64,000 bases of DNA from Cyanophora paradoxa CCMP329 (taxonomy: Eukaryota > Plantae > Glaucophyta): NCBI GenBank assembly GCA_004431415.1, contig QPMI01000655.1, forward strand, positions 205,157 to 269,156, written 5' to 3'. How positions within the stretch are numbered: position 1 is the stretch's first letter; each line of letters opens with the position of its first letter. Below the pieces are notes generated by a model that ran no database searches, was not told the origin of the DNA, and saw nothing but the letters and a program-made list of their open reading frames with translations. Position numbers and translations under genes: made by a program. Below are positions 22,946 through 52,762 of this stretch, one piece after another.

Positions 22946-22950
22946 GTCCG

Positions 22951-22956
22951 TACCCC
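22951..22956 (+). repeat. Left target-site duplication TACCCC
   Basis: The same hexamer occurs directly after the right TIR (52757-52762). Confidence 0.9.
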
Positions 22957-23248
22957 ACACATAGGGATACCCCTGATCCAAGCCCTCCGGCCTTCGGCCT
23001 ACAGGCTTGGATCAGGGGTATCCCTATGTGTGCGCGTTTCAGGTACTAGGGTAGTAAGCATTTATTTCAGGTCTTAGGGTATTAATCATGTCTTTTTGGC
23101 ACCAGTATGTTGGCCGCCTCTGGGGTATTAGAAGCTTGGATTCGGCACCAATTAGGCAGGAGAGGCAGGAGGGTTATTTGTAAACTTTCCTATGGATTCC
23201 CCTCTTGTGTGGGATTTTACATATAACCCTCCTGCCTCTCCTGCCTCT
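22957..23248 (+). repeat. Left terminal inverted repeat (~292 bp) containing two hairpins
   Basis: Reverse complement of 52467-52756, with only a few differences in the loop of the inner hairpin. Confidence 0.95.
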
Positions 23249-23257
23249 ATCCATAAT

Positions 23258-23628
23258 TAAGACTGCCAACCATCTCTTCATTTCTTTACGTTTTCTCTTA
23301 AAGAGATATCTTGAATAGTCAGGGGATGGAAGGGGAATGGGAGTGTCTGGTAAAAGGGTGGTTTGAGGGATGGCAGGGGGATGGGATGGATGGCGGAGGG
23401 GATGGCAGGGGGATGGAGGGATGGCAGAGGGGATGGCAGGGGATGGGAAAATGTATGAAATTTGGTTGATTTGTGACGATATCTGGTCAGGGGATGGGAG
23501 GGGGATGGGACTCAGTCAGGGGATGGGACTTTTCTCAGAAAACAAATTTTGTTTTTGTTTTTTGAAATTTTCTATTCGAGTACAAGGGGATGGGTTTCCC
23601 ATCCCCTCATCCCCCCATCCTCCTCTCT
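23258..23628 (+). repeat. G-rich internal direct repeat, copy 1 (GGGGATGG array followed by CCATCCCC array)
   Basis: Aligns by eye with 31001-31355 (taagactgcc...aaagagatatcttgaatagtcagggg...gggacttttctcagaaaa...aggggatgggtttcccatcccc). Confidence 0.85.
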
Positions 23629-23630
23629 GC

Positions 23631-25018
23631 TCAAATCCTCCTCCTTGATCTCGTGGAAATTGCTGGAGCTTCATAGGTCTCCTTTGAATTCGAGAAATCT
23701 CTATACCACCTTACTGCCTCTGCTCCCCCTGCTAATCTCTCTGTTCCCGCCACCCTCAATCTCTCCAACTCTCTCCCTTGTTTCTTCTTCTTCCCTGCTC
23801 TGTCCTCCAATAATGGTTTATCTGGCACGTTTGGCGCCCTCTCAATCCCCTCTCTGGCCAAAAGTCGCTCTGTTCTGGCCTCTTTCTTTGCCTCTTCAAT
23901 GACATTTATTGATGGCGCCTCCAAGAACTCCACGGTTTCCACTTTCTGTAATTCGTAGTGGGCATAAAGTCGATCTATTAGTTTGCCAGAAATGTCCCTT
24001 AGTTTAAATTTGAACCCCTCCACTCCTTCTATTGTGAATATTTCGCGGCTCCAATTATTCCCTTGTTTGGCAAATGGGCTCTTCTCTATTTTAGTTCTCA
24101 CGTGGCTCCCTGCTGGATAGTCTTTTAGATATTCAATTGACTTCATGAATTTCTCGTTTTCTTTTCCGAGTATTAGAGGAACATGTACCTCTGTGGTCTC
24201 TGCTGGTTTCATCCCGTTGCTGAGTGGATGGTATTATTGTAGTTGTAGGCAAAATCTTGGAGCTTGTCGAAAAACTTTACAGTATTATTCGCTATACAAT
24301 ACGAGTTAATTAGCTTCTTTATTGTGCGATTAAAGGCTTCTATTCGGCCTTGGCTATTGTGATCTCCAACCTGCGAAACTTGGTGCTCAATCATCTGGGT
24401 TTCTAAATGGTCTTTAAATACCTTGTTCAGGAATTCGCTCCCAGCATCACTTTGTATCTTCACAATTGGACGAGGGACTTGTTGCTCAAGCTCCTTAAAT
24501 GCGTTCAATGTGCTTTCTGCTGTCTTTCCCCTCATGGGAATTATAAAGCCCAGTCTGGTGGTATTTTCTACAGCTGTGAGGAACGTGTTGTAGCCTTGAT
24601 TCTGTTTGCTGTACGAAGGATAAAAGATTAGGTCTATGGCATAGCAGTCGAGTGGCTGTCTTATTGGGATATAGGCAGTCTTCTTGGCAGATGGGAGGGG
24701 TTTATTTATCTGGTTGATTTCTTGGGCATCATAGAATCTACGGATTGTCTTTCTTGGCACATCTGGAAGCTCTTTGGCCAATGAAGCAAGGCCTTTAAAT
24801 CCTACCTTGGTGTCATAGAATGTCCTTGCTAAGGGATCCAAGTGAGGCACAGCAATGGCAGTTGGGATATCCGCAGGAACTAAAGCTTTGAGGTCACTCT
24901 TTTTCTGAATGCGACCCCTCTCTCCTCTTGAGGGATTGGGATTGGCAATATACTCACATCGTACTCTGTTTGTCTGCGTGTGATCTTTGATGACATCTAT
25001 ATTGGGATTAGAAAGCAA
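23631..25018 (-). CDS. Retroviral-type (rve) Maverick/Polinton integrase; one 1-nt indel near 24212
   Basis: DDE motifs YAIDL, QSDAGSEF, RIEAFNRTI; YNNTIHSATG|MKP is restored by adding one G; C-terminal VR..K..F.K...NWS.EIF.I...ELQKV typical of Maverick integrases. Confidence 0.9.
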
Positions 25019-28000
25019 TCTTTGACATCTTCACATTGAAGGTCTCATTTTCAAGCTTCTTTTGGACAGTCATTTCGATTTGCTTGGGTTTTTGGTGGAG
25101 CACATGGTCTTTATAATCTTGGAAAGACAGATCTGTTTGAATGGTCTCCTTACAAACACCTGCCAGCTTTTTGATTTCCTCATCATCTGTTTTAATGCTG
25201 TAGCATTTCGGCCTCACACCAGCATATTCAGTAATGGTTCTGCCCTCAAACTCATCTTTGAACTTGCCAAGCTCTGTGGGGTGGGTGTCAATGTCTTGTA
25301 GGTCTTTTGCTATAGTTTTCGAATTTATTTGAAGGCAAAGCGAATCTGTATCAGTAAAAAGCAGTTTACAGTCTGGCCATTTCCGCTTGATGGTGTTATA
25401 ATAATAATCAAATAGGCGCAGCTTGGCAAGATCTAAAACAACTGCCCCAATTGCTATGGGCTTATCTAACTTGACATCTTTTTGTAGCATTTCGAAGGCT
25501 ACTGCTGAATCGCTTAGTCTTGTTTCTGCTTTGAGTAGGGGCGATCTGGCGTATTTCATAAATTGCTTTTCGTTGGTGGCAATCTTGACATTAGACCTTC
25601 CTCTCACTTTCTCAATGGTTTTGCCAAAAAGGCTATTGTTCATGATCTTAAAGAAGTCCTTTTCGGGTTTGGAAGGGGCTGCTTTGCGGTTTTGGGCATT
25701 GGATTCGACGTAAGGCTTCATAAAGGCAGCCTGAGTAAATGTTAGCACCCTGTGGATTTTGGTGACCTTTAAGCCTTGCGCTACCATGAATTGGAGCAAA
25801 GGTTTCGACACCACATAATTACAAATGTCTTCGCAGGCTGCTTGTAGTCCATCCTCTGCTCTCTTGATAACAAGAGGTAGCTCTTTGTGGAGTTGATGGA
25901 GGTGCTGGGGATAATGGATGTCAACTTCTAAGATGGCCCCTCTGCTGATGACAGGTCGTAATTTGAGGGTTCTGGGTGCCATTGGAAATTCGAGAGGGGT
26001 AGCTTTTGGGATAGGGCATATCCATATAGGTTATTGGCATCCAAATATATAATGTGGCTGTCCCTTTCCTTTTTGGCATATTTATGATTCATAATCGAAA
26101 GGCCTCCCCTGATCATGCCTTCAACCATGTTGTACATATCAAGGTTGGAAAGAAGCTCGATTTTAGGCTTGGTAATAGATAGCATGCTGTCCACGAAAGC
26201 CCTGGACTTGAGACATAGAGGGCAGCATCCATCCCAAAAGTTTTGTGTGATTTCTGGCGGAAAAGCTGGAACTTTTCCATTAATCCTTCCACGTTCTGGA
26301 CGCCATAATCAATAAAGTTTTTGATGTCAATGAATTTAAAGCAACCCCAAGTGATCGACATGTAGTTGTCAAACGATTTTGCGAGGACTTCCACCCTTTT
26401 TTCGGGATTTAAGGCGACTGCCTTGAATATCTGCGTTCCAGATAGGGACAGATCATTGGTCACTATGGGAATCTTGGTGAGATTGCTGGTGCGTCTGTGG
26501 AGATTACATTTGCGACATGCTGTGCCTACAAAATCGCCAGTTTGGTGGTCGTGATCCCTCACTTTATAATTGTCTTGGGTGAAATCACCTTGGCAGATGT
26601 AGCAGGTTTTAGCAAGGTAATGGGTACGTTTCTGCTCTTTGGTCAGTGACATTGGGATGTTGGTAAATAGGGCTTTGAATAGCTCTGGGGCTGTGCTGTC
26701 GAGGGTACTCAGGAGCTCAAAGATGTTGGAGTGGGTTTTAGTGAGTACTACTCTATTATTATGAAGAGCTGTCAGTGAGATTGATTTGATCTTGAACATA
26801 CCAGAAATATCTGTTTCATAATCGAAATAGCAATAGGCAATCACGGGGAGGAATACAGTCTTTGAGAGATGTTTAAGACCAAATTCAATGAATGTGGGTT
26901 GTTTTGGGGTCTCTCCAGCACTTGTCTTCCAATCCACACAACGTTTGCTTTGAATGTGGGATTGAAGCTTCTCCTCAGTCTTGAAGTGGTTGGAACAGGT
27001 TTTACAGAAATGGAGTCGCTGCTTATCATTTTTAGCTAAGACTCTGGACATGCTGAATATTGTGGTATAATGACTGTTACCATTTTCGTCTGTAATAAGC
27101 AGCAGATCCACTTGGTGTTTCCTGTTCCTTGAGGAGCTGTTGTGGAGTAGATTAATTTCTTCTGTAGAGTTAGAGGGGTCGTAAATATTAACAGAGATTG
27201 CTGGATTGAGATTTTCAAAGAGATCAATAGTATCAGCATCTGCCTTTACAGGAAACTCAATGCCCTCGAAATTTAGTTCTTTTTTGAACCACCTCCTGTA
27301 TTGGGAAGTCTCATTGCGCTTGTGGCTATTTACTTCGTCCTTGTGAATATAAGAAAGGATAGCATACTCAAAGCATCTATTGTCCTTGTTATTAACATTG
27401 ACAATGGCTCGTTTATTTTTGAGCCACTCTGGGAGTGGGATAAAAGCACCTCCTGAGATGGGTTTAAAGGACAGAACAATCACTCTCAAAGCCTCAATGC
27501 TTTGGAGTTTATAGCTGTCTGTGACATTAATTTGCGACTGGCATTCCTTAGCCAATTTCGCAGTTTCTTTAGTGAGGGTTCGAGATCTTGTCATGATAGC
27601 ATAGGTGCTGTAAATGTGCTTGGTAATAAAGTCTCTCGAATTGTTTGCTTTTGAAAAGCGACAGACAAACGTAAAGCGAGTTTTAATCGACATCTGTGAA
27701 TTGATGGCATCTTGGAGCCTTGTGTGGAGTTCCTCAGAGTAGGTGTCTATAAACTCTTGAGTGGTCAGGATCTGGTGGTGAGCCCTGATGGTAAAATCAA
27801 TGTATTTATTATTAAGAGCACGATGTTCATTTATTAAGGTAGTGTATTCATCTCCTCTGACTTGAGTTGTGGTAGTTTGTTCGACTTGGATTTGGCCAAG
27901 GCGATCAGTCTCATCAAGGGTCTCGATTTTCCCTAATAGCTCTCGATTGAGAGCTTGAAGCCCCTTGAGCTTCTTGTTGGTCTGTTTAATATAAGATTCA

Positions 28001-28101
28001 TATTCACTTTCACTGATGGAGTGATTGGCCAGTAAGAACGCCAGATTCCCGAGAATCTTGTCCTGGAGCTCCTTAATTTGGTAGTGGCTGGGGCGGGGCA
28101 T
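25008..28101 (-). CDS. Protein-primed family B DNA polymerase (pPolB) with N-terminal OTU-like, C2H2 and EndoVII-like Zn domains; two 1-nt indels
   Basis: Motifs IRGG, YLDANNLYG, KIMNNSLFGK, FTDTDS, LGKFKDE, PKCYS; N-terminal FIPLPEWLKNKRAIVNVNNKDNRCFEYAI and CYIC..VRDHDHQTG...ACRKCN. Frames join by adding one G at ~26191 and at ~25938. Confidence 0.9.
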
Positions 28102-28245
28102 GGTTGGGGGGTTGTACTTATATATAGGTACGAAAATAATCTTTAAATGTTTATATTGTGGACAATTCGCAGCGCTAAAAAAACGAATAGAATCAGCATT
28201 TAAAGAATAAAATCTTACCTATAGTGTAGAGGAACAAGAATTAAA

Positions 28246-28437
28246 ATGGCATACCATGCGGCATCTCAAATTGCCTATGTGACTCGTCGCCGTGCTCAAG
28301 ATCCTGCTTTCCGTGAGAGAATGAAGCTTAATAGTCTGAGGAGCAGATACTACAAAGGTGACCCCCTTCCCTGCGTGAGGTACCTCTTTGATGAAAGGAG
28401 GTGCCTTGTTGGCAGACCAAGGACAGTGGTGTATTGA
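28246..28437 (+). CDS. Small basic hypothetical protein (63 aa; DPAFRE helix, GRP AT-hook-like motif)
   Basis: Clean ATG context (ttaaaATG); resembles ORF 34947-35177. Confidence 0.55.
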   Translation: MAYHAASQIAYVTRRRAQDPAFRERMKLNSLRSRYYKGDPLPCVRYLFDERRCLVGRPRTVVY

Positions 28438-28448
28438 GGGGGTTGCGA

Positions 28449-28456
28449 AAAATTGA
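28449..28456 (+). promoter_or_regulatory. AAAATTGA motif (Mimiviridae-type early promoter) upstream of the primase-helicase
   Basis: Exact octamer ~85 nt upstream of ATG 28541, in intergenic DNA. Confidence 0.45.
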
Positions 28457-28540
28457 TTGTTTTATTTAATGATTCTATAAACTACTTAAGGACAAGGGCC
28501 CTTATAGAATCATCAAATTATTTTCTCACCCTACTGTAGA

Positions 28541-31003
28541 ATGACATCCACCATGTTCACCACCACCGAAATTACTTGTGCCCCCACTGAGGCAACTTTC
28601 AAGAAGCAGCTTCAAAACTTTGACAAGTCTGGCATCATCTCCATGAGCTGGGATGAGGCTAATTGTATCATTCAAAAAGGGAAGCACTGGGTCGAGCATT
28701 TAACCCCTGAACAGCTGACCAGGGTTTATTTGGACTTTGACAGGCTTGTCCCTCTCGAGAATGATGCTTCTATCAACCAAAAAGAAGCTGCTCAAGTTGT
28801 ATTGGATTTGCGCAAACGTCTTGCTGCCTTGTCAGGGGTTGACTTGGATAAAATTGCTGTTAGTGTGAGGCATCGAAGGGTAAAGCTTGTTGATTCAGGA
28901 GAGGTTAAATTCAAGCAATCTGCCCATTTTATTTGGGCAGATCTGGTTATGAAGCATGAAGATATCCCAAATCTACTTGATTCTTGGGGGCTGGTTAGAG
29001 GGGATGATTATGATCCTCAGCCATACAGTTCCACACAAAATATTGTCTGTATCTACAATTGTAAGGATACTGGGCTTGACAAAAGGACCAAAAAGCATGA
29101 TGTTGATATTGATGTGGTCTTCAAACCAGCAATGTACTGCCTTCAAGGAGTCCCCTATAAACACTACTTTGTCCAGTTCTATGAAGCTGGGGCGCAGCTA
29201 CTTCAAATTCAGGAGGGGGGCAAGGCTGTTCCATTCAAGGCTCCTATAGTGGCATCAAACCCCACCTTATCTGGCTTTGACATTCTTAGAAAGGCTGTTA
29301 TGGGGTTGGATGGAAAACGCGCTGATGATAGAAAGGCATGGGTCAATGTTGGCTATGCCATCTGTAATGTTAGCAAAGACATGGAAATCCCAAAGAAACA
29401 GGCCAGAGAACTGTGGCATGACTTCAGCTCTAAATGCTTGGACAAGTATGATGAAGATGGGGCTGACAAAGATTTTGAGAGCATCTGGAACAGCAAGAGA
29501 AAGGGGAGCAAAATCACAATGGGTTCACTCAGGACCTGGCTGAAGCAGGATAATCCAGAACTTTACAAGGTCATGTTTTCAGCACCCCAAGTATCAGGAT
29601 TCTTATTCTTGGATGATGAGGAGGGGGAAGAAAATGGAAAGGTCAACTACAAACTGGATCCAATCCCAGCAAGGGATATATATGAGGTACAAAAACGATA
29701 CTTGGATGCCAGGTGTATCCATTGTACTGATAAAAAGTGTGTGTTTATGTGGAATGACAAAGAAAAATCTTGGGTTCCCCATGACATTGAAAAAGTGAAG
29801 AAAGGTACTTTCCCACACATCCAGTATGATGCTGGGGATGGTAAATATAAGAGTACCTTCAAGAAGTGGATAGAGGATGGAGATAGTACCAGATATGAGT
29901 TTGTGGAGTTCCTTCCACCTCCTGCCAAGCTCCCATGTAAAACAGCCAGTGTCTTCAACCTCTATCAGGGAATGGCAATCGATTATGCTCCATGTGGTGA
30001 TATTCCTGATGTGATCACTGATGAGATGATCAGCCCTTTCCTGAAACATTTGAGTTTAATGTGTGGGGAGAATGAGAAAGCTACAGAGTATGCCTTGAAA
30101 TGGTTTGCTCATATGCTCCAGAGGCCTGGGGAAAAGATTGGGGTTGCCTTGGTTTTCATGGGTGTCCAAGGCACAGGAAAAAATACACTGCTGGACATTT
30201 TTGAGAAAAAGGTGTTGGGCAACAAATTGGCCTTCTCCACATGTGATGGAGAGAATGACCTATTTTCCAGATTCTCACACAACAAAGAGCATAAAATTAT
30301 GGTGACATTGAATGAGGCCAAAGCAAAGGATAACTATGAGTACAGCGAAAAGCTTAAGGATTATATAACAAATGATAAGATCACCATTGAACACAAAGGC
30401 ATTGACAGCTACACAAGCCCCAATTGTGTCCACTTCGTTTTCACAACAAATAGTAATATCCCTGTGAAGGTGGAGTCTGGAGATAGGCGATTTGCCTTCT
30501 TTGAAAGCAGCACAAAACACCAAAGAGATGCTGAGTACTTCAAGCCACTTCATGCTTGGCTTGACAATACTGACAACATCCACATGATTGTCAGGTTCCT
30601 GAAACACGTGGACATCAGCAATGTGGATTGGGATAAAGAGAGGCCATTGAGTGCCAAATATTTCCTTGCTCAACAGGCAACACTTTCACCTATTGAATAC
30701 TTTGCCTACTGGCTAACAGCCAATGGAAAGGTCACCAAGGAGAAATGTAAGACACAAAATCTGATCAGTGCTTGGACTTGGTGGGCAGAGTTTCAGGAGA
30801 AGGCCAAATTCAAGTGTGAGATGAATCAAAAGAAGTTCTATATTGAGATGAGGAATACAGCCTTTATTGAGGTGAAAAAGTGCCAAGGCATCAATTACTA
30901 TCATTTCAAATGGGAGGATATGATGTCTGCCTTCAAGAAATGTAAGCTGGAAGATGATGATAGCATCAAAGAGGAAGAGAATATTCTGATTCAAGATGAT
31001 TAA
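28541..31003 (+). CDS. AEP primase-polymerase + PriCT-2 + D5-like SF3 helicase (820 aa)
   Basis: RVYLDFD, SAHFIW, YDPQPY (AEP); WVNVGYAI..LWHDFSSK..KYD..ITMGSLRTWLKQDNPE (PriCT-2); GVQGTGKN, LNEA, FTTN, DRRF (SF3). Confidence 0.92.
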   Translation: MTSTMFTTTEITCAPTEATFKKQLQNFDKSGIISMSWDEANCIIQKGKHWVEHLTPEQLTRVYLDFDRLVPLENDASINQKEAAQVVLDLRKRLAALSGVDLDKIAVSVRHRRVKLVDSGEVKFKQSAHFIWADLVMKHEDIPNLLDSWGLVRGDDYDPQPYSSTQNIVCIYNCKDTGLDKRTKKHDVDIDVVFKPAMYCLQGVPYKHYFVQFYEAGAQLLQIQEGGKAVPFKAPIVASNPTLSGFDILRKAVMGLDGKRADDRKAWVNVGYAICNVSKDMEIPKKQARELWHDFSSKCLDKYDEDGADKDFESIWNSKRKGSKITMGSLRTWLKQDNPELYKVMFSAPQVSGFLFLDDEEGEENGKVNYKLDPIPARDIYEVQKRYLDARCIHCTDKKCVFMWNDKEKSWVPHDIEKVKKGTFPHIQYDAGDGKYKSTFKKWIEDGDSTRYEFVEFLPPPAKLPCKTASVFNLYQGMAIDYAPCGDIPDVITDEMISPFLKHLSLMCGENEKATEYALKWFAHMLQRPGEKIGVALVFMGVQGTGKNTLLDIFEKKVLGNKLAFSTCDGENDLFSRFSHNKEHKIMVTLNEAKAKDNYEYSEKLKDYITNDKITIEHKGIDSYTSPNCVHFVFTTNSNIPVKVESGDRRFAFFESSTKHQRDAEYFKPLHAWLDNTDNIHMIVRFLKHVDISNVDWDKERPLSAKYFLAQQATLSPIEYFAYWLTANGKVTKEKCKTQNLISAWTWWAEFQEKAKFKCEMNQKKFYIEMRNTAFIEVKKCQGINYYHFKWEDMMSAFKKCKLEDDDSIKEEENILIQDD

Positions 31004-31355
31004 GACTGCCCTCCTTCTACTCATTTTTTCCATTTATCTATAAAAGAGATATCTTGAATAGTCAGGGGGATGGAAGGGGGATGGGACTGTCTGGTAAGGA
31101 GTGGTTTGAGGGGATGGGTAGGGGGATGGGAGGGGATGGGAGGGGGATGGGTAGGGGGATGGGAAAAAAGGAAGGAGGTGGCTGATTTGTGACCATAGCC
31201 AGTCAGGGGGATGGGTAGGGGGATGGGAGTCAGTCAGGGGGATGGGACTTTTCTCAGAAAAATAATTTTGTTTTTGTTTTTTGAAATTTTCTAATCGAGT
31301 TCAAGGGGATGGGTTTCCCATCCCCCCATCCCCCTATCCCCCCATCCCCCTCTCT
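31001..31355 (+). repeat. G-rich internal direct repeat, copy 2
   Basis: Begins at the helicase stop codon; same anchors as 23258-23628. Confidence 0.85.
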
Positions 31356-31384
31356 CCATCCCTACCACTTGGAAGAGGAGGAGG

Positions 31385-31760: not shown

Positions 31761-31841
31761 CCCCACTTGCTTGTAGGCCACCAGCACTTAAGGACATCTT
31801 CATATAGCATGGTGAAGAGCCCAAGCCCCAAGTGCCCACCA

Positions 31842-31849
31842 AAAATTGA
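31842..31849 (+). promoter_or_regulatory. Second AAAATTGA motif
   Basis: Exact octamer ~54 nt upstream of ATG 31903. Confidence 0.35.
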
Positions 31850-31902
31850 TTCTTGACACCCCCAACCCCCAAACAGTCTTACATAAGCCCACCAGTACCA
31901 CC

Positions 31903-32136: not shown

Positions 32137-32293
32137 AAATTGTAAGTACCCCATCTTAAAATCACCGATTCACTCCTTGCCGCTATCACCGTTGGATTCC
32201 TCGTACAAAGTAGATATTTATAGACTCCAACATCATAGCCTTACGATGATCTGGTGACGAGCTACGAATATTTTCAGTTTCGCATATACCAAA

Positions 32294-32447
32294 TGTATAT
32301 ACCATAATGATATATGTATATGATATATTATGATGTCACATGACATATATATATAACATAGCTTTCCGGACTCGCCGCGTCATGGCGATCACGGCGCTAT
32401 AGTTTTTACCAAAACTTGTTTTTTTTTCATATATATCATATACATAT
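32294..32447 (+). repeat. 154-bp AT-rich foldback unit, copy 1
   Basis: Near-identical to 33917-34069; perfect 17-bp internal inverted repeat (32312-32328 / 32431-32447). Confidence 0.9.
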
Positions 32448-32457
32448 GTACGTTCGC

Positions 32458-32604
32458 GCGTACTGAGCCACGGTACGCACAGGGGCCTGCGTACTGCGCT
32501 ACGGTACGCACAGTGGCTTGCGTACTGCGCTACGGTACGCACAGTGGCTTGCGTACTGCGCTACGGTACGCACAGTGGCCTGCGTACCAGCTAAAGTACG
32601 CACA
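32458..32604 (+). repeat. 31-bp tandem repeat, ~5 copies (gcgtactgcgctacggtacgcacagtggctt)
   Basis: Period 31 read directly; each unit carries a tgcgtac...gtacgca dyad. Confidence 0.9.
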
Positions 32605-33916
32605 TTAAATCTTATAAGACCATATAAGATTTTGAAAAAGAACAAGATCCGTGCTCCTGCGGAGCACTAAGTACGGCGAAGCCTCGCGGACGCCCTCGCG
32701 GTTGTCACAGTAGGCCTATAGGGCACTCAGCGACTGGCCAGCGGCCTGGCCGATCGCGAACAGGTTTCTGGCTGGAAGCTGGCTGGCTGACGGCCAGTCC
32801 AGCTACCGCTGGCCGGCTAGAGGAATATAACTAGAGGAATATTAATGTACTGAGGAAATAAAGGGAGGCCGGAGCAGGTTGAGATTAGAGGAGATGAATT
32901 ATATATAATATTGTTGAGAGGGAGGCCCGGGAGGGGCAAGGTTCTCGCGGCCAGGCGCATGCACAGAGCTTGCGAATCGCTTAAACAGAATCTTGAATGC
33001 ATATAGCTATAGCATCGATGTGCGGGGCTGCGGAGCTCGAGGCGAGGGCGCGCGGAAAGATGTGCAGGTCCATGCAGGATCGAATTTTCGGGGTCGGCTG
33101 GGTCCTCGCGGCCCGTCGCATACGCAAAGCGTGCGGAAGACTTTGCCTACATCTTAAATGCTTATGCTATCGTTCCGCGCATGCGCCGCGGCGTGGGCGC
33201 GCGGAAAGATGTCAGGGCGCGTGCAGGATCGAATTTTGGCCGTCGGGTACCTTCCTGCGCTGTTCCGGCTCCGAAAAGCGGATTTCGGGGTGCGCAGGCC
33301 CTGCTATGTCCATGCGCGCCAGTACGCATCGATTGCGCGCGTCGCGGGACCGGGCGGGACCGGCTAGCGCTGGATCAAATTTTCGGCCGACTCTTCGCAC
33401 TGGAGCGTCGACGGCGCTTGAAATCGAGCTTGCGGCGATGCGCTCGCCCTCGCGCGGCATTCTGTATCGTTCTGGGGCGTCCCTGGCGCGATTTCGTCGC
33501 GGGACCGGGCGGGACCGGGTCCCACCTTCTGACTCGGACTGCATTTGTCGGAGGTTAAGTACCGGAATTGATCCAGAGGGAAATTCGATTTTCGCGCGAC
33601 GCCCACGGGCGAGCGGTCGTCTTAGGGGAGCCACGACGCTAAAAATGGATCTAGAGAGGTCTGTGGGGGTTAGGGTAGCTGAGTCATTAGCGGCAATCGC
33701 GTCCGTGTCGAGGCAGAATTAATAATTCGTCCTCGAGGGAGTGCGACGCGGAAATTATTTAGCAGGGGGGATCTTGAGTGGAAAAAAAGGTTAAAAAAGG
33801 AATTTATATCGGCGGTTTTTGGGTTTGAGAAAGAGGCTTCGCCTGATTCTTATAAAGACCATATAAGATATAAGACAACTCTTATAAGACCTTATATGAC
33901 TTAAATTTGAGCGACT

Positions 33917-34069
33917 TGTATATACCATTATGATATATGTATATGATATATCATAATGTCACATGACATATATATATAACATAGCTTTCCGGACTCGCCG
34001 CGTCATGGCGATCACGGCGCTGTAGTTTTTACCAAAACTTGGTTTTTTTCATATATATCATATACATAT
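33917..34069 (+). repeat. 153-bp AT-rich foldback unit, copy 2
   Basis: Direct repeat of 32294-32447; followed by CCTACC/GGTAGG dyad motifs (34079-34212). Confidence 0.9.
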
Positions 34070-34645
34070 ATATGAGCCAGCCTACCGCAGTGGTAGGCGA
34101 GCCCGTGTGTCTACCGCAGACCGGTAGGCACAGTCCGCCGGCGGTAGAACAGTAGGGCCCTGCCTACTCGCCTACCGGTAGAGCCCTCGCGCCTACCGTA
34201 CAGCAGTAGGCGGCTTTTTCCTTATAGAGCTCTATAAGAATGTTTCTAAAACTTTCAATTAGAGCCACTTAAGGAACTTCAAACGCGAATATCTCGGCAC
34301 CAGATTGGCCGTTTTGAGCGCTCTTTTTTTCCTGTGAAGCTCTCATCAAGCTCTACGCAGAGCCGCCCCTTTCGCATTTTTATGCTGCCTAAAAGTAGAT
34401 TATTATGACAACTCCCATCCATACTCGCCTTGTAGAGGTGTCCTTTGAACTCTCATATTTGGCGCTGACGTCTCCAAGCTCAGAACTGAGTAACTCCATA
34501 CATCGCCTCTCTATAGAACTGTACAACCTTGGTCATCGAATAGCCCCCTGTCTCCACATATCAAAGCAGCTTTACAAAAAATATCAAACGATCTCCTCAT
34601 GCTTGGAAATGAGATTAGCCCCTTCCCTGATGGCAGATAATGTGT

Positions 34646-42810: not shown

Positions 42811-42853
42811 CTAATACTTATAAGGAATTTTATAAATCCATATAGTAAAAGCC

Positions 42854-45800
42854 ATGAGCTTTAATTACCCCCCTAATCTGGAAACAATTCAAGATGATAA
42901 TTCCAGCAGCACAAAGCATGTGAACTTTGATAATATAAAAGTTAAAGGTTCAATATCAATCGACCACAGCTCTGACGGTTCTTCAAAGACTCAATCAAGG
43001 GAGCATGCCCTTTCCTTAAATCAGACCGATCCAGACAAGGAGGATGTCAGTATAGCTTTTAGTTTGGGCAATGTGAAAGCCAACCAAGTAGCAGAGATCA
43101 AGGCAACCAGAAAGAGACCCAGAAAACTTAAACCAAGTGGAACCCATCCAGACATACCATCAAGGTGTGATAGTGGCCGTTTGATTTTCAATGTACAAGA
43201 TGAGCAGGGCAAACAGAACACGGGTTTAAGAATTTATAATGAGGGCAGCACCACAAAAACAGAGGTTCCCCAAGTATTACAAGTGGGCCATTTCCAGAAC
43301 ACGAATCAAGTCTGTTCAACTAATGATGTATACCCCAAGGATATTACATATGACTTTGCGAGGAATGAGCCGTTTGGGTTTTTTACTCCAAATGATGTCC
43401 ACCAGAAAAAGCCATCAATTACCATCAACAGCAGCCCCACTCAACCAGTGGCAATCCATTTACACCCTGATCTTGTCGAAATGGATAGGCACCTTTTACC
43501 ATTGGTCACAAACACCAAAGACCTTGGAATCAGGACGAGGCAGTGGCGAAATATCCATGGAAGCAATGTGTATGCCAATGGTGAAAAGCTTGTCAGTGAG
43601 AAAACTTTAAGGGAAATCTTTGAGCATTACGGTCCTGTTCCTGTCCCCTTTCCGCTTCCGTGGGATCCACCTGACCTTACACCAAAGAAGCAACCAGGGA
43701 GGGAATACACAGCAGAGGAAAATGTAGCCTTTGGGCAGCACATAGTTAGCTGGGAAAAAGTCAGAAACAAACCAGTATTTACAGATTACAAACAACCAGC
43801 TGAGGAGCTTTTATCACCAGATGTAAATGTAATACCTCTTGAAGATAGGAGATTTGAAGACGATAATGTCTTACCAGATGGCTTTGACCCAAATCTTGTG
43901 ACTTATGATCGCTACGAGCCTTTTCATGAGCAGCTTTTACCTGATGGTTTTGCGCCTGATCTGTTCGATTTTATCATTAATTGGGAAGATATTCGAAACA
44001 AACCTGAAACATATCCACCAGATCCCCATGGTCATGATTGGGACGAAATCGAAAATAAACCTGATAGATTTCCACCAGAAGATCACAGACATGATTGGGA
44101 AGAGATTGATAATAAACCTGACAGATTTCCACCAGAGGATCACAGACATGATTGGGGTGACATTGACGGAATACCAGAACAGTTCCCACCAGAAGATCAT
44201 AGGCATAATTGGGACGAAATAGATGAACAACCCACATTCGCATCAGCAGGCAATATGTTGACAGACTTTCCACTTGGTGTAAGTCTCTATCAAAATATTG
44301 AGATTGAAGAAAGATTACAATTAAATGACTACTATGTGAATCGTAGGGGATTAGATGCTGGAACCACAATGGAAGGCGAATTGTATATCAGACCCCCAAC
44401 AAGAGTTAATTTAGTGGCAGCTGGTGGAGGTGTTGAAATAAAAGACACCAAACCCGGTATCTATCTAACAAGTTACTACCCAGATGACATCCCAATGACA
44501 GCAACATTTCCACCTATACCATCTCTTCCAGCTGATCCAATTAATTTTGTAGACAAAGATGCCACCCTTCAAATTAACGTAACTGATGTTAGCGCTTTTG
44601 ATGGATCAAGACCAAAGTTAATATTTAGTCGAGAACGTCTCTTACCTGATGATTTAATTGGAGATCGAGATGATTATAAACAGTGTGAGGTAGCTTGGAT
44701 TAAAACAAATTATAATGGTGGAGTGGGGGAGGGTGTCTTAGAGATCAATCAAAGGGCATCAGCCAAAAACATACACAACGAAACTATATCGAGAATTGTC
44801 ACAGAGGATTATTTAGAAAATAAGAACTACATAGATGGAACAGAACTCTCAACTATACTCAATGATTATGTAACAGAAACTGAATATGCCACAACACTGG
44901 CAGCAGCATTAATACCCTATGTTACAGAGACTGAGCTTGATGCTGAACTCGCTAAATATTTACCACTGACAGGTGGCACCATTACAGGTGATCTTACAGT
45001 CAATAGAGAATTGGAGGTAAAGGATAAGATTGTTATAGGGAACAATGAGATTTCAAGAGCACCTTTAAACTTCTTAAATTTCGATGTTGGGGGTTTGTCT
45101 CATTGCCTTCTAAGATTTAATGCGAGTTTGGATGATGCTTGGGAAAATAATGTACTGGTCTATGAGCTTGTTAATAAAGCAAATGCTAATGTTATTCAAA
45201 AACTGATACAGTCAGGAAGTGTAGTATTCAAGAGTTCAGGAGGTCCTAATAACAAACCCTTCTATGATGTAGCAGACACAAATAGCTTCTCTACTTTCCG
45301 TTATTCCTTCACTTCTACAAATTCAGCAGGCTATGAAACCATCGATTTCAGTGGAGGGATAACTGTCGCATTTGTGATTAAGTTAAGAAGCGCTGAACCG
45401 CTTGAACCTATTTTACAGTTTGATGGGTCTTCTACACTTGGTAGTAATGGGCAAATTTGGAGTATTTCCAAAGGTCAATGGGGTGATGGTTTCGTTTTGA
45501 ACATCAGCAAATTAGACCAATCTACTTTCAGGGTTCCACTCACAATTGACGAAGTAGATTCTTGGACAATCTATGACATCACAATCACAAGCACATTCGT
45601 AAAAGTGGGTGTTAATGCGAAAGAGAGACAGACCTTTTCGATTACAAATGGTTCTCATCTGCCCCGAAATGATGTAAAGTATGTATATTTGGGAAGTCAA
45701 TACTCAAAATTTGACCTGTGCGAATTCTATTGTTTCACAAGAGCCTTAACAGCTGCTGAGCTATATAATTTACGATGGTATCTTCATCAATTCTACGGAT

Positions 45801-48800
45801 TTGTGGAAGACCCTTCAAACCCAATACCAAGAGATGATAATAAACTACTCATCAAGACTCAGGAACTACAAGTAACAGGGATGAACTTAGCAACCACCAA
45901 TGGTGTAGCAGCATTACTTACAGAATTCACAACCTCGAATGTAGTAGACGGATGGTTAAATAAATACACCACTTCTAATGTTGTGGAGGGTTGGATAGCA
46001 GATTCAGAAGCGTTGTTAGAGAACTACTTACCATTAACAGGTGGAACAATCACAGGAAATCTTAACGTGAGCAATCAAGGAAACACTGACAGCAAACTCA
46101 AAATATATGAGAACACTTTCAAATTGGATTATTTGGATGTCTCGACGTTTAATGTCCTTTCAGTTCTTAATGTTTTCGTTTGGGTCAGAGCAAGGGACAA
46201 CATGAAAGATGGAACGATAGTGAGTGGACTTGGAAACGGAGCAGGAGACGTTTGGTTTGATAATAACCCTGAGACACCGAATTTTCTTCTTGGGTTTGGT
46301 AATGTTGCTGGGAACTCGACGCAAATTAAGAATAATGGAGGTCCTAACAACAAACCTTATTTTAATTCGTATCCTACCATTAACTTCAACTTTTCAGCCT
46401 ATAATACGTGGGGGGCTGAGTGTGAACTTTTCATGAGCCAAACTTCACAGCAACATTTAACTGTGTTTTTCGTCGCGAAATTCACAGATACAGCACCTCC
46501 AAATGTAGAGAACGTTTTATCTTTGAGATATGGAACCACAAATTGGAGCATCAATAAATGGAACAATGGTGCGACTTGTTATATTCAGGTTTCTAATGGG
46601 GTTGGAGCAGCAGGATTAGGTGAAAGCACTTCACCAAGTAACGCAAAAGCAGAAATTACATACTCCGAAATGACGACATGGACACTCTACGAAGTAACAG
46701 TCTCTCCTTCCACTGTTACATTTGGGATCAATGGTAGCAATAGAAGTGTTGCAAATGTTACAAACATGTTCCCCAATAACCTTGTTACTGAAAGTCGTAT
46801 TGGCTCTTCAACCTCCAAACAAGATTTAGCAGAGCTAATAGTGATTATTAAACCAACAACAGAAATCGTCAAAAATAACGTGCGAAGTTATCTCCTTCAA
46901 AAATACGGTTATCCTGAGCCATTAGACAATCCTTTCTCCAGTGACCCTAACAAACTTCTTCTACAAACAAACAGCCTGAGAGTTACAGGAAGTCTTATAG
47001 CCAACAACCTCCAATATACAGCACCAGCACCAGGAGGTGGTTTTATTATCAAAGATTTCCAAACAAGTTCAAGCCTTCAAGAGGCAGAAATAACTGCCAT
47101 CAATGCCCAGATTACACAGATACAAGAAAGCATAGACAGTATCAATACCAATATAGAACCTTTAACCACTTCCAATGTAGTTCACGAATGGGTAGCTCCA
47201 CTGACTGCTTCCAATGTAGTTCAGGAATGGATAGCCCCATTGACTGCTTCCAATGTAGTTCACGAATGGGTAGCTCCACTGACTGCTTCCAATGTAGTTC
47301 AGGAATGGATAGCCCATTGACTGCTTCCAATGTAGTTCAAGAGTGGATAGCCCCACTGACTGCTTCCAATGTAGTTCAGGAATGGATAGCCCCATTGACT
47401 GCTTCCAATGTAGTTCACGAATGGGTAGCTCCACTGACTGCTTCCAATGTAGTTCAGGAATGGATAGCCCATTGACTGCTTCCAATGTAGTTCAAGAGTG
47501 GATAGCCCCACTGACTGCTTCCAATATAGTTCAAGAGTGGTTAGTTCCCAAGGCTGATACAGAAACCGTAAATTCCCAAATAGCCCTGCTGACGTCTTCC
47601 AACACAGTTCAGGGCTGGTTAATCCCAAGGCTGATACAGCAGCTGTAAATTCCCAAATAGCCCTGCTGACATCCTCCAACACAGTTCAAGCTTGGTTAGC
47701 CCCAAAGGCTGAGACTGCCTTTGTTAACTCCCAAATAGCCCTGTTGACCTCTTCCAACACAGTTCAGGGCTGGTTAGCTCCCAAGGCTGATACGGCTACA
47801 GTCAATACCCAAATATCTCCACTCACATCCTCAAATATAGTTCAGAGCTGGTTGAGTGACTATTTGCCCAAATCAGGAGGGACTATCACATCCAATCTTT
47901 CTGTTTCGGGCAGCCTTTACACAAATAACATAAGAAGTGGTAGCCAATCCATAGACTTGGTTCTAATCCAAAACTTGATACCTCCCCTGGAACGCCTTTC
48001 AGCATACACAAATCCACTGTCTACACCAAACTGTGTATTCCACTGGTATCCTTTAAATGAGCCATCAGGCACAGCAATACCAGAACTTACCAATAGGGCA
48101 TCTGGGCAACCCAATGCTTTGCCTTCTTGGCTAAAAGTGTCAACTGGGGCCTTCGTGCTGAGTGCCTCTTTAATCAATGGGAATAAACTATTTGGGGTTA
48201 CAGGGGTAACAACCTATTTGGCGCAACCAAGTCCCTACATAGCAAACCCATTCAGCAATGGGATGACAATGTTCTCTGTGAGAAGGAACTATTCAACCTC
48301 TGCCAGTCCTTCAGCTCATCTAAACATTTACAGTGACCCTACATCAAGTAGAAATATAAGATTCGGAACCACAGGAGAAACATCTATTGGAATAACGAGT
48401 TATCAAACAAATGGAGTGTATCAAGCAACTTCCACAGCATCCACAGCCACGAGCTTTTACAACAATTGGACTTTGTTTGACTATCATGTCACTTCAACCG
48501 TAACCACAGTAGGCATCAATAGTGTTGATTTATCCCCCACATTATCTGGCAACTACAATTTAAGTGAAGTGGCAAATCTCACAATCCAAAAGATTGGGAT
48601 AGAAAGCTTCCAAGGACAAATGGCAGAAATAATCATTTACAATCGGGCTCTATCAGCTGATGAGAAGGGCTTTATCCGCTACTATCTATCACAAAAGTAT
48701 GGTCTGAGCAACCCAATTCCCCAAATCAGCCCAGCCTACTCCTCAAATGAGTTCCTACAGGTGTCCACCCCCAATCTTATACTTAATAAGCTGACTGTGA

Positions 48801-50251
48801 ATAGCAATGTAGCCTTGCCAAATATCCCCACATCAAACACTGTTCAAAACTGGCTTCAACCTTACACCACTTCAAATGTCGTTCAAGCATTGATAGCTGA
48901 AAAAATTAATCCACAACTTGTTACTTCAAATGTTACAAGGGACTGGCTCAGCAGCTATCTGCCCCGAACGGGAGGTACAATAACATCAAACCTTGTAGTT
49001 TCAAGCAACCTTTACACTCCTTCAATCATAAATGGTGACCAGTCCATCAAGTTCTATCCAATTTCTACATCGCCACCAATTGACCAGCTCCTTTCATATA
49101 CTAATCCACTTTTCACATCCAATTGTGTGTTCCACTGGTACCCAAATTCAACTGATGTCAATGGCTCGTTGTTAGAAACAATGGTCAACAGAGCAGAAGG
49201 GCTCCCACTTGCCTTACCAAACATGAGCCCTGGGTTCACTTTATCCAAGAACTCAATAAGCAGTGGGACAGCATTGAATGGAAATAAATACATGGTCAGC
49301 ACAAGTAGTTCTTCTGGATATCGGCATCAGTACACCACAGCATTATCAAACATTTTTGCCAGTGGCATGACTGTATTTTCAGTGAGAAAGCACACTGCCA
49401 CAGGTAACCAATCACATTTTGTAGTTACCAATGATGACACAAGTGACCCTACATACGGGAGATATATCACACTGGGAGCAGTTAATGGAAATTCCCTTGG
49501 TATTATCACTTCCACATTAACACAAGTCTCAACAACAAGCTTCTTGAATTCTTGGGGGTTGTTCGACTTTCAATTAACCCCTACAACACTAACTATGGGG
49601 TTGAATGGCGCAGATGTATCTCCCTCAATTACTGGAAGCTTCCTGTGGTCAAACACGCCAACCATAAAAATAAAGGAACTCTCATTCACTTCCTATGTAG
49701 GAGAGATAGCCGAAGTTGTAATTTTTAATCGGGCTTTATCTCCAACTGAAAAGAGTTTCATGAGATATTACTTTAAGCTCAAATTTGGGCTTGACTTTCC
49801 ATACACTTATCCCGAAACATACACTCAGCTCTCAGCAAATCTTTTGGTAGACAAGCTCAGTGTGAACACCAATGTTTACGCAAGGTCTTTCTATGAGGTG
49901 GCCACTGGAACTACAAATAGTCTAAGTAAAATCCTGACATGGAATGAAATCAGGCAAAGATTTCTATCTGGGACTTTCCAGATGAGTATAGGACCCCTCA
50001 ACGCCAATAGCCGTGGAGAAGCCACTTATATTTTAAATTGGAACCCAGCATTCAACACGAAACCACCTGTCATTAGTTTAGTAATGGAAGGAACCCCTGT
50101 GACAACCCAAGCGCTTGGCTATAAGTTTGGATTATCGAATTCAAGTTCTACCTCGTCCACAGTTCATGTTACCTTGCTAACTGATGCGACTGCTACAGCA
50201 AATACGACATATACCTTCACAATTCACTGGACAGCATATGGAATTCCGTGA
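42854..50251 (+). CDS. Giant fibre/adhesin protein (~2460 aa; frameshifts in the repeat region 47.3-47.7 kb)
   Basis: ORFs 42854-47320 and 47744-50251 are joined by TSN repeats; HxHDWxEIxxKPxxFPP repeats, four YLPxxGGTIT motifs, four LamG-like domains ending in an EIIIYNRALS..YL..KYG-type motif. Confidence 0.8.
43979..44235 (+). repeat. Coding 57-bp repeat (DWDEIENKPDRFPPEDHRH), ~4.5 copies
   Basis: Seen in DNA and in translation. Confidence 0.85.
47159..47855 (+). repeat. Coding tandem repeats: ten 39-bp units (PLTASNVVQEWIA) then ~four 78-bp units (PKADT..VNSQIALLTSSNTVQGWL)
   Basis: Read directly; two 39-bp units lack one C. Confidence 0.9.
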
Positions 50252-50290
50252 TGAAGCTTTATTTTTCTATCCTTCTTAATAAAAGAAGTA

Positions 50291-51136
50291 ATGGGCGAAT
50301 ATAATCGAGTCCAATTACCAGTTTACGCATTGGGGAGTCCAGCAATTCATTTTAGACAACATGAAGTGTCTGATGAAGTTCGTGGAATGGAATCAACAGA
50401 ACGGGCAAATTCAGGTAATGCTTTTGACAAGAATAGTATGATTCGTGTAAAAGAACTGAGAGCTGATAAAAATTCGGGAGTGGTGAAAACAACTCAACTA
50501 CTTGTAACAAATGCGAATTTTCAATCAGCAAATGGACAACCTGATGCGTATGGTGTAGATATCAAAGCATTTGAATTTGACAATACAAGGGCTGCTGCTG
50601 TTATAAGATCAGGAGGAGCAATAATTGGTGGTGGCTGTAGAGTATCGGGAATGCTTGGCTCTTCTGCTGCCTTTAATGATTTTCCGGACACTTTACCTGA
50701 ACATGCTGATAATCCCCAAAGAATTCGCATGTTTCTTCCATGCGGGGATTCCCCGTATGCTTTTGGTATCATTAGAGCTAATGTAAATACGCAAAATGCC
50801 ACTCAACCCCAAGGTATTGCCGGACCATGGAAATTGGCTAATCAGCTTCTACCAAAGGCAATGTATTCTATATGTCGCTCTCAGAATGGAGGATTAGAAG
50901 GTTATACTTTCTTTGTTCAAGCAGTAGGCCATGGTGGGCGTGGATGGATCACAAGAAATCCTGCTACACAACCAAACAGTTTCGATTTTTGGGCATCAGA
51001 GGTAGGGGGTTATGATATTTTAATTTTTGGATATCGTAATGATGAAGCAGCATGGGCTGTTGCCAACTGTATAAATCCTGATTCGCAAGTATCGAATTTC
51101 TATAATGAACCATTCCCAAATGATCCCATTCCGTAA
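50291..51136 (+). CDS. Hypothetical virion/fibre-associated protein A (281 aa)
   Basis: Paralog of 51156-52001: ESTE, ELR.DKN.GVVKTT.LLVTNANF, RSGGA.IG.G.RV.G. Confidence 0.75.
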   Translation: MGEYNRVQLPVYALGSPAIHFRQHEVSDEVRGMESTERANSGNAFDKNSMIRVKELRADKNSGVVKTTQLLVTNANFQSANGQPDAYGVDIKAFEFDNTRAAAVIRSGGAIIGGGCRVSGMLGSSAAFNDFPDTLPEHADNPQRIRMFLPCGDSPYAFGIIRANVNTQNATQPQGIAGPWKLANQLLPKAMYSICRSQNGGLEGYTFFVQAVGHGGRGWITRNPATQPNSFDFWASEVGGYDILIFGYRNDEAAWAVANCINPDSQVSNFYNEPFPNDPIP

Positions 51137-51155
51137 TTATGTTTCAGTATATTAA

Positions 51156-52001
51156 ATGGCAGCACCAGCACCACCAGAGCGCATTTTAACAGCGCAACTA
51201 TCATTAGCTGCTCCAGCTAACCACGTCTTACAGCATGCTATTATTGATAATATTGATGGTCTCGAATCCACAGAGATAGCCCCAACCCTAAATACTTTTG
51301 GGGACACTCACATGCTAAGACTAAGAGAATTGAGATGTGACAAAAATAATGGGGTCGTTAAAACTACTAAACTTCTTGTAACAAATGCGAATTTCAACGC
51401 ATTTCATGGGGATCCTGATAGTTACAATGATGATAACAAGGTAACCAATTTTGCCTACGAAGCAAGAAGGGGAGCAATTAAATGTAGGTCAGGAGGTGCC
51501 TATATTGGAGATGGTTTAAGGGTTGGTGGAATTATTGGAGCGCCTTTATTAGTAAATGATCAACCCAATCCAGATGATGTGAATACAAGAATCAGGACAT
51601 ATGTCCCGGGAATGAATGAGCCTTACATTATCAAAATCAACACAATCATTATCAACCTTCAGACTGCTGTCATTGATGTTATAGAGCCTTTGGGAAATCA
51701 CTATAGATATACTGAGACGTTGCCTGCTGATATTTACGCATTATGTAGAAGAACAGATGGAGCAAGACCCCGAATTACTGTCCAAGTAGTCCCAGTAGAT
51801 AATTTCGGACTTGCTTTCCATTCACTGCCACTTCTTGACACACAAGATGACCAATATATTATAAGAGCTACCCAGCAAGGGGCTTACACAGTGATTATGT
51901 ATGCTGAAAGGAATGATGAAATTGCCAGAGGAAATAGATTTGGTCAATATCTAACCACAAATTTATACAATCCCATTGGAGGAAGTGATCCTTTGCCTTA
52001 A
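51156..52001 (+). CDS. Hypothetical virion/fibre-associated protein B (281 aa)
   Basis: Tandem paralog of 50291-51136. Confidence 0.75.
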   Translation: MAAPAPPERILTAQLSLAAPANHVLQHAIIDNIDGLESTEIAPTLNTFGDTHMLRLRELRCDKNNGVVKTTKLLVTNANFNAFHGDPDSYNDDNKVTNFAYEARRGAIKCRSGGAYIGDGLRVGGIIGAPLLVNDQPNPDDVNTRIRTYVPGMNEPYIIKINTIIINLQTAVIDVIEPLGNHYRYTETLPADIYALCRRTDGARPRITVQVVPVDNFGLAFHSLPLLDTQDDQYIIRATQQGAYTVIMYAERNDEIARGNRFGQYLTTNLYNPIGGSDPLP

Positions 52002-52046
52002 ATCTCCAGCAATCTTATTGTTTTTTCTATTCTATTGGTAATCAAA

Positions 52047-52445
52047 ATGCTTGCCAAAGGTTACCATGTGATGCTTGATTTCCAATTCAGCCAACCAATT
52101 AGAGACCATGTGGAGCTCTCTAAATGGCTCATGAATGTCAGTGAAGACATCATCAAGAAATATGGAATACAGGTTGTCCACAAACATGCTGAGATTTTTG
52201 ATGGCACCAAATCACCCCCTGGATTTGCCCAAGTATTATTATTAGATGAAAGCCATTGCTCTGCTCATTGCTACAGTGATCAAGGCATGTTGGCAATAGA
52301 TATATTCAGCTGTGGAAAACAGGCAGAAAGGAATACAAGTTTAATTGCTTTTGAGCTGGAGGAGGAGATAAACAAATATGCTGTTGGATTTGGGGCAGTA
52401 ATTAAAAAGAGATTACACCATGAGAAGAGGAGATTTGAGGTTTAA
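52047..52445 (+). CDS. speD: Prokaryotic-type pyruvoyl S-adenosylmethionine decarboxylase proenzyme
   Basis: GYHVMLDF..., PPGFAQVLLLDESHCSAHCY..GMLAIDIFSCG, with the E|SH self-cleavage site and terminal CG motif. Confidence 0.85.
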   Translation: MLAKGYHVMLDFQFSQPIRDHVELSKWLMNVSEDIIKKYGIQVVHKHAEIFDGTKSPPGFAQVLLLDESHCSAHCYSDQGMLAIDIFSCGKQAERNTSLIAFELEEEINKYAVGFGAVIKKRLHHEKRRFEV

Positions 52446-52466
52446 GAGAGGGGCAGGAGAGGCAAG

Positions 52467-52756
52467 AGAGGCAGGAGAGGCAGGAGGGTTATATGTAAAA
52501 TCCCACACAAGAGGGGATTCCTTAGAAGTTTACAAATAACCCTCCTGCCTCTCCTGCCTAATTGGTGCCGAATCCAAGCTTCTAATACCCCAGAGGCGGC
52601 CAACATACTGGTGCCAAAAAGACATGATTAATACCCTAAGACCTGAAATAAATGCTTACTACCCTAGTACCTGAAACGCGCACACATAGGGATACCCCTG
52701 ATCCAAGCCTGTAGGCCGAAGGCCGGAGGGCTTGGATCAGGGGTATCCCTATGTGT
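52467..52756 (-). repeat. Right terminal inverted repeat (~290 bp)
   Basis: Reverse complement of 22957-23248; termini 5'-ACAC...GTGT-3'. Confidence 0.95.
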
Positions 52757-52762
52757 TACCCC
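52757..52762 (+). repeat. Right target-site duplication TACCCC
   Basis: ...ccctatgtgt|tacccc; matches 22951-22956. Confidence 0.9.

Follow-up and report, generated by a model that had tools for sequence, protein, structure and literature searches.

What entered a short host-gene intron in the glaucophyte Cyanophora paradoxa CCMP329, and does the insert still carry the parts of a working virus? The question arises in a stretch of 64,000 nt (assembly GCA_004431415.1, contig QPMI01000655.1, positions 205,157–269,156 of the forward strand), called here the window, to which all coordinates refer. The element occupies positions 22957–52756 (29,800 bp), starts with ACAC and ends with GTGT. An earlier note made from the letters alone had described it as a complete polinton-like virus (PLV) with an unusual gene set, possibly of an undescribed lineage. 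Judging by its sequence, the element belongs to a family that is catalogued but so far undescribed. We consider it probable that this is a complete and functional PLV, which would be replicated from a protein primer by a proofreading-less DNA polymerase (pPolB) together with an AEP–D5 primase-helicase, integrated by an rve integrase and helped into the cell by fibre and patatin–discoidin proteins. Its less described features are the 75-nt palindromes at the tips, an exonuclease deletion in pPolB, a primase gene apparently distributed patchily and, in one RNA-like contig, splicing between host and viral sequences.

Ends of the element and the host intron

The outer limits given in the earlier note proved exact. 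The element lies between two copies of a target-site duplication (TSD), for which the chance of an exact six-mer at a fixed place is about 8e-4 given the host composition, and its GC content is 42.9% against 73.1% in the flanking host DNA. The terminal inverted repeats (TIRs), estimated before at about 290 bp, measure 292 and 290 bp and are nearly identical: the first 231 of 231 bases agree, after which two mismatches and a two-base gap follow. At both mismatched places contigs of all three DNA runs have the right-end letter, so that the true repeats may match even better. A complete and probably recent insertion, as had been proposed, is borne out. The ends and the adjoining exons are as follows.

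22951–22956, no strand: left TSD, TACCCC, exact, extension impossible on either side
22957–23248, plus strand: left TIR, 292 bp, from inverted-end alignment
22957–23031, no strand: left terminal palindrome, 75 nt, with a 28-bp perfect stem and a 19-nt loop containing a 4-bp mini-stem, from fold analysis
23154–23246, no strand: inner TIR hairpin, 31-bp arms, about 200 bases in, from fold analysis
52467–52756, minus strand: right TIR, 290 bp, containing the palindrome 52682–52756, from inverted-end alignment
52757–52762, no strand: right TSD, TACCCC, exact copy of the left one
22898–22945, plus strand: host exon 5' of the split intron, donor GT at 22946, from spliced joints in the RNA-like run X18
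52816–52899, plus strand: host exon 3' of the split intron, acceptor AG ending at 52815, frame continuing from the upstream exon

Each end thus combines a 75-nt palindrome at the very tip with a second hairpin further in. No perfect stem in the whole window is longer than those of the two terminal palindromes, and folding of the left TIR gave a z-score of −12.4, with none of 200 shuffled sequences as stable. An Rfam search returned no matches, while a search with the palindrome pattern returned no viral match and two metagenome matches, both read as chance occurrences in coding DNA. The earlier note mentioned neither these palindromes nor the host intron, nor the frameshifts and the vOTU protease within pPolB discussed below.

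Removal of the element with one copy of the TSD leaves a 64-nt GT–AG intron, the flanking exons of which join in frame. Neighbouring host introns are 61–86 nt long, five of six being marked GT..AG, according to spliced joints in one contig of X18, a run that is RNA-like by a computed guess. It is likely that the element, one copy of a multi-copy family, was pasted by its own integrase into an intron of 64 bases. The joined exons read as a putative polycystin/TRP-type channel, at its pore and final helix; single exons gave no match in Pfam.

The insertion did not leave splicing of the host gene untouched. The same single contig of X18 joins the host donor to the AG at 23003–23004 within the palindrome and extends over 111 bases of viral sequence, the spliced frame of this contig meeting a stop 14 codons on. 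It is the palindrome that supplies the CAG acceptor (23002–23004), with a branch-point-like CTGAT upstream of it. Therefore, at least one truncated host transcript is produced from the element-bearing allele.

A chimera of host and viral DNA, which the earlier note had named as one way in which it could be wrong, was considered at this point. Contigs of the reads were compared with positions 22000–31200, an interval that takes in the left junction and ends before the right one. At the left junction contigs of the DNA runs X1 and X3 pass from the host 26 bases into the element with no difference, while X17 stops short; the in-frame union of the exons flanking the split intron also argues against chimeric assembly. 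That a collapsed or contaminant viral contig was joined to host DNA could be suspected from the contig depth of the integrase and polymerase genes, many times that of the flank, and from a possibly artefactual inverted duplication of 5 kb elsewhere in the window. The exact TSD, the host exons in frame to either side and the independent contigs over the left junction make such an origin highly improbable, though the interior of the element may be a mosaic of sister copies. At least half of the sampled words were found in 17 of the 24 runs listed, dated 2012–2024 and all labelled as one organism, one of which may be the source of the window.

Virion and replication genes

The element contains 14 genes occupying 80% of its length. 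They are listed below together with two non-coding features.

23260–23623, plus strand: G-rich repeat, 80% like 31003–31342 over 373 columns, from repeat comparison
23631–24996, minus strand: rve integrase, in pieces, breaks near 24212 and 24914 (Pfam, NCBIfam and PHROG searches)
25008–28101, minus strand: Maverick-type pPolB, breaks near 25936 and 26190 (homologs, PHROG)
28541–31003, plus strand: AEP primase – PriCT-2 – SF3 (D5-like) helicase, 820 aa, intact (Pfam PriCT_2 5.7e-12, DUF5906 7.3e-20)
32240–34400, no strand: non-coding CpG-rich island with repeats (composition and repeat scan)
35206–35940, minus strand: 244-aa gene adjoining the ATPase, function unassigned (no significant family match)
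35969–36751, minus strand: A32/FtsK-type packaging ATPase (Pfam Pox_A32 4.6e-13)
36812–37759, minus strand: phage-like homing endonuclease with zinc-finger repeats (phrog_559 1.4e-73)
37866–39236, minus strand: double-jelly-roll capsid, 456 aa (relative P0001, Foldseek)
39291–40321, minus strand: penton-like gene 1, one break near 40010–40139 (motif and position)
40330–41265, plus strand: penton-like gene 2, intact, 311 aa (motif; 56% to its one homolog, P0027)
41255–42810, minus strand: patatin phospholipase with C-terminal discoidin, one break near 41521–41569 (Pfam patatin 1.2e-19; F5/8 discoidin weak, 5e-4)
42854–50251, plus strand: fibre-like gene with phage-tail repeats, LamG and 39-bp tandem units, break at about 47320–47558 (LamG 2e-4)
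50291–51136, plus strand: unknown paralog A, 281 aa (36% identical to paralog B, E 4e-48)
51156–52001, plus strand: unknown paralog B, 281 aa (36% identical to paralog A)
52047–52445, plus strand: bacterial-type S-adenosylmethionine (AdoMet) decarboxylase (Pfam AdoMet_dc 9.7e-12)

Family searches and homologs agree with the integrase, pPolB, primase–D5 helicase, ATPase and capsid claimed before. Catalytic motifs, in their generally known meaning, are in place in the integrase, primase, helicase, ATPase, patatin and polymerase. For the integrase the Pfam rve match (E 5.5e-6) lies below the curated cut-off and the NCBIfam match to IS481-type transposases is 3.2e-20, with DDE-like residues in place. 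A nested retrotransposon as the source of the rve domain was ruled out by the missing reverse transcriptase and by the position of the gene within the replication module.

The capsid gene has no match in Pfam, and its relatives number only two among 1.84 billion representatives. Its full-length identity to P0001, a protein of C. paradoxa, is 59%. AlphaFold models of the capsid are poor (pLDDT 39 and 36); with the low-confidence model of pLDDT 36, four of the five Foldseek matches in BFVD at E<=0.001 are named capsids, while Foldseek against PDB gave nothing at this threshold and PDB sequences searched with a profile yielded no match either. The capsid matches are NCLDV/adintovirus-like, and the protein is not of the virophage type. 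IMG/VR and JGI metagenome contigs contained no relatives of the capsid, the ATPase or the primase.

The "two pentons" of the earlier note stand as two candidate genes, their identity as pentons being our assumption from an N-terminal motif, size and position; neither matched the family libraries or PDB, and they show no significant similarity to each other. The absence of a recognisable maturation protease held up in 25 main frames, 46 further short frames and a motif scan, three low-complexity frames of 62–68 aa standing outside this set. It is possible that a very divergent protease is among the three unknown genes. The 281-aa paralogs between the fibre and AdoMet decarboxylase genes, which have no family match, are possibly virion or host-range proteins.

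Thus, the element has the packaging ATPase and double-jelly-roll capsid of PLVs in the broad sense, and its length and TIRs fall within the range reported for them, 14–40 kb with TIRs (PMC12220804). Of the marks of Mavericks/Polintons it has the rve integrase with a TSD of 5–6 bp and is without the vUlp1/adenain protease, while virophage-type capsid and maturation protease, which define virophages, are both missing.

Base composition within the element is uneven. The CpG observed/expected ratio is 1.33 in the island and 0.41 in the rest, falling to 0.14 in the primase gene and 0.00 in that of AdoMet decarboxylase, with about 1.1 in host DNA; this depletion may reflect methylation or its avoidance. 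The island contains 31-bp tandem units and two 157-bp direct repeats (at 32294 and 33917, 95.5%), each bounded by an inverted repeat of 17–19 bp. It has no match in Pfam or Rfam; it may be a control region, or else a non-autonomous element nested in the virus.

In the host part of the window an inverted duplication of about 5 kb (5997–11340 and 12446–17820, about 98%) carries a gene with PAS and guanylate/adenylate cyclase domains; it may be real or a long-read fold-back artefact. Other flanking host frames are of ABC-transporter (1414–2697) and TPR-containing (60385–63243) types.

Polymerase, mode of replication and state of this copy

The polymerase was identified by PHROG (3.8e-11) and by 24 homologs, namely Maverick-type pPolBs at 23–43% and the intact 1083-aa P0003 at 50%. 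It consists of an N-terminal region, a vOTU protease with its Cys and His, an endonuclease-VII-like zinc finger and a polymerase part with intact motifs A, B and C. The distance from FxDS to FExFR is 20 residues in this protein and in P0003 but 112–120 in 19 of the 24 homologs, four others being fragments too short to span it. A deletion of about 95 aa thus removed Exo III; the Asp of Exo II is missing in both proteins, and Exo I, absent from P0003, is either shifted or absent in the element. Of the Maverick order TP–vOTU–EXO–PALM the vOTU and palm are therefore kept and the exonuclease motifs lost. Since Exo II and Exo III are missing, the enzyme is predicted to copy DNA without proofreading, as argued for mavirus, and so with many errors. 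In a quick-mode pPolB tree it pairs with P0003 on a long branch, leaving the lineage unplaced.

Exonuclease loss has been described for mavirus, whose enzyme goes with an S3H helicase, and for Tlr1-type helicase fusions, in the same source that gives the TP–vOTU–pPolB model (PMC11161782). An internal deletion of this kind in a Maverick-type pPolB was not found in the available literature on inactivated pPolB exonucleases. The polymerase of the element is a long, Maverick-type enzyme that has a vOTU and a zinc finger, and its nearest named homologs, at 25–34%, are from arthropods; the loss is therefore likely independent of that in mavirus.

Based on this gene set one can assume the following cycle. 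The element would leave the chromosome as linear DNA, and synthesis of each strand by pPolB would begin on a putative terminal-protein domain of the polymerase itself, to be cut off afterwards by the vOTU protease. The terminal ACAC repeat would suit slide-back priming, the mechanism of phi29 and adenovirus. The AEP–D5 protein would unwind the DNA and may re-prime it, after which the ATPase would pack it into the capsid, with penton, fibre and patatin–discoidin serving entry. The terminal palindrome is most likely an end or origin structure, and its splice acceptor, which truncates the host protein, would be a side effect. With no transcription enzyme recognisable among the genes of the element, activation by a co-infecting giant virus would be plausible.

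The palindromes themselves suggest another way of starting replication: each 3' end may fold into the 28-bp hairpin, as in parvoviruses, and be elongated by pPolB or AEP, a nuclease resolving the ends. The palindrome reaches the last base, so that a folded 3' end would be fully paired and point inward; in one loose contig end of run X17 a sister copy keeps the mini-stem of the loop by a paired change (GGCC/GGCC to GGGC/GCCC); and a model of this type was proposed for palindromic ends beside TSDs in the available part of a preprint on Halocafeteria seosinensis (bioRxiv 10.64898/2026.07.28.741278). However, the N-terminal region and the vOTU catalytic pair of pPolB have been kept and would be idle, and the palindromes of the preprint mostly accompany non-pPolB replicases. 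Nor was a flipped loop registered among the rows listed, both ends having the same loop direction, and a Pfam scan of main and short frames found no Rep-like nickase. Fold-back priming of the same virus is therefore regarded as a serious but doubtful alternative to priming by protein.

A further question is whether this copy works at all. As assembled, the element has seven frame breaks. The four in the integrase and polymerase genes disappear in contigs of all three DNA runs, which have one more base in a short run, with full depth at three of these places in all runs and partial depth at the fourth. They are likely assembly errors, and the same frameshift artefact has been described by Bellas 2023 (PMC10120064). 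The contigs pool sister copies and this one may deviate, assembly error being the simpler explanation. Of 20 scattered pPolB variants seen in sister copies, 15 leave the residue unchanged (p 4e-6 against 25%), counted in the best-supported rows listed, with 40 further rows outside the count.

Taken together with the shortened parts of the polymerase (exonuclease, TPR1 region and C-terminus) and the gene-poor middle of 4 kb, the seven breaks could indicate a decaying provirus that no longer makes particles and whose polymerase is being replaced by the primase-helicase; two replicases are called "transient states in ongoing replacement" in the Halocafeteria preprint. Such decay is hard to reconcile with an exonuclease deletion common to the intact P0003, with mostly synonymous variants, with the loss of all four tested breaks in short-read contigs, with whole frames of capsid, ATPase and primase, and with a pPolB covered more deeply than the primase. 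We hold it to be improbable and keep to a functional virus primed by protein.

Several observations weigh against that choice. The 26-base overlap at the left junction is below the bar of 31 letters for a bridge, X17 ending already at 22926, and the three breaks in the structural half lie outside the stretch covered by reads. Eight clustered pPolB variants of one run, five of which change the residue, were left out of the count of 20. The C-terminus of pPolB is about 25 aa shorter than that of P0003 and contigs agree with the window, which could be decay.

Contig depths in the interval compared provide a view of the sister copies. In run X1 the summed depth, which is not copy number, is 57 in the host flank, about 1800 at the element end, about 700–1800 over the integrase and polymerase genes and 160 over the primase; X3 and X17 reproduce these steps. 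Loose contig ends appear at 28111, 28176 and 28551. The steps and the loose ends suggest that most sisters have another gene beside pPolB, and the primase gene is apparently present in only some copies. G-rich direct repeats of the 340-bp class (23260–23623 and 31003–31342) bracket the integrase–polymerase–primase module and could mediate its exchange or form G-quadruplexes. A loose end of X3 at 22953 brings the same viral end after a C-run at another GC-rich host site, while loose ends at 23004 and 23105 (X1, X3 and X17) belong to related ends identical for about 150 bases and divergent beyond. Among the runs listed there are no RNA runs with viral genes, which has no bearing on expression.

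More speculatively, and with considerable doubt, one may imagine a glaucophyte-specific lineage caught between two modes of replication, with a non-proofreading Maverick polymerase working on hairpin ends, an exchangeable primase-helicase and a hairpin that serves as a portable splice acceptor, knocking down those host genes into whose introns it inserts.

Catalogued relatives and named systems

The novelty claimed in the earlier note did not survive comparison with published catalogues. The closest capsids are C. paradoxa entries of Bellas 2023 (PMC10120064), in Table S2 of which P0001 has an HHpred value of 98.47% to an iridovirus capsid and entry gene_64235 matches the capsid, compared by eye, at 46 of the first 52 residues. 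The columns of that source, counted by hand, give 366 capsid hits for this species, 272 in cluster 21 and 94 in cluster 29; these are the only clusters with its capsids, lie outside named PLV groups such as TsV/Aquintoviricetes, PgVV, Gossevirus, Trimcap and GKS2/3, and are unnamed and marked "new". The capsid relatives, together with GC content and intron style, point to Cyanophora as the likely host. With clustering at 25% identity and 59% identity to a listed member, the capsid belongs to one of the two. Table S6 of Bulzu 2025 (PMC12220804) covers 156 glaucophyte elements, with an ATPase in 139, minor capsid in 97, rve in 85, PF03175 in 49, PriCT_2 in 15, lipases in 89 and AdoMet_dc in 66; nine protease models and tyrosine recombinase are at zero. 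Only 2 of the 156 match its capsid model, which speaks for divergence of the capsids. Among glaucophyte PLVs, 11 have discoidin, either by itself or as a fusion with patatin (PMC12220804).

Since both the capsid family and the gene set are already catalogued, this is not an unseen lineage. The outcome that the earlier note had named as fatal to its claim, a capsid in a described clade with the same gene content, largely came about, except that the clusters still lack a name. No gene-level description of clusters 21 and 29 was found in the literature searched. Terminal palindromes, exonuclease loss and intron capture go unmentioned in the available parts of PMC10120064 and PMC12220804, which provide counts only, with "hairpin" at zero in their main texts. 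This copy may already be within the datasets of both catalogues or of the preprint.

What the locus offers is an exactly delimited, probably intact representative of a large family (366 capsid hits), and this in a glaucophyte kept in culture, from a group of central importance for the evolution of plastids. It is also a tangible example of viral DNA that, once integrated, diverts the splicing of a host gene. In one strain it can be tested whether palindromic PLV ends prime replication, as proposed in a single preprint, and how frequently pPolB loses its proofreading when a helicase accompanies it.

With other Cyanophora PLVs, as tabulated, the element has in common the integrase, pPolB, primase, A32 ATPase, lipase, discoidin–patatin and AdoMet decarboxylase, the protease and tyrosine recombinase being missing in both. 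Mavirus and the low-GC EMALEs are also similar, having rve, pPolB and primase/helicase, TIRs, a short TSD, low GC in a high-GC host, insertion into host genes or introns and a pPolB without working exonuclease (PMC8547959; PMC11161782). An "unusual replication triad" of rve, pPolB and primase/helicase was accordingly rejected, as it is standard in low-GC EMALEs, which insert in introns too (PMC8547959). They differ in their virophage capsid and maturation protease, whereas the element has an NCLDV/adintovirus-like capsid and a long Maverick-type pPolB with vOTU and zinc finger.

In H. seosinensis the available text of the preprint describes virophages and PLVs of subtype 4 with palindromes beside TSDs. 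Common to these elements and ours are a palindrome in the TIR next to the TSD, an rve integrase and replication genes swapped among copies. Their palindromes, 52 nt long in subtype 5, go mostly with non-pPolB replicases, while here a 75-nt palindrome with a looped stem accompanies a vOTU-bearing pPolB.

Mavericks/Polintons (Polintoviricetes) share with the element the pPolB with vOTU, rve integrase, ATPase, capsid, TIRs and 6-bp TSD. The ends of Mavericks are usually AG...CT. The element differs from them in its AC...GT ends, in the missing vUlp1/adenain protease, in the lost exonuclease motifs and in the additional AEP–D5 protein.

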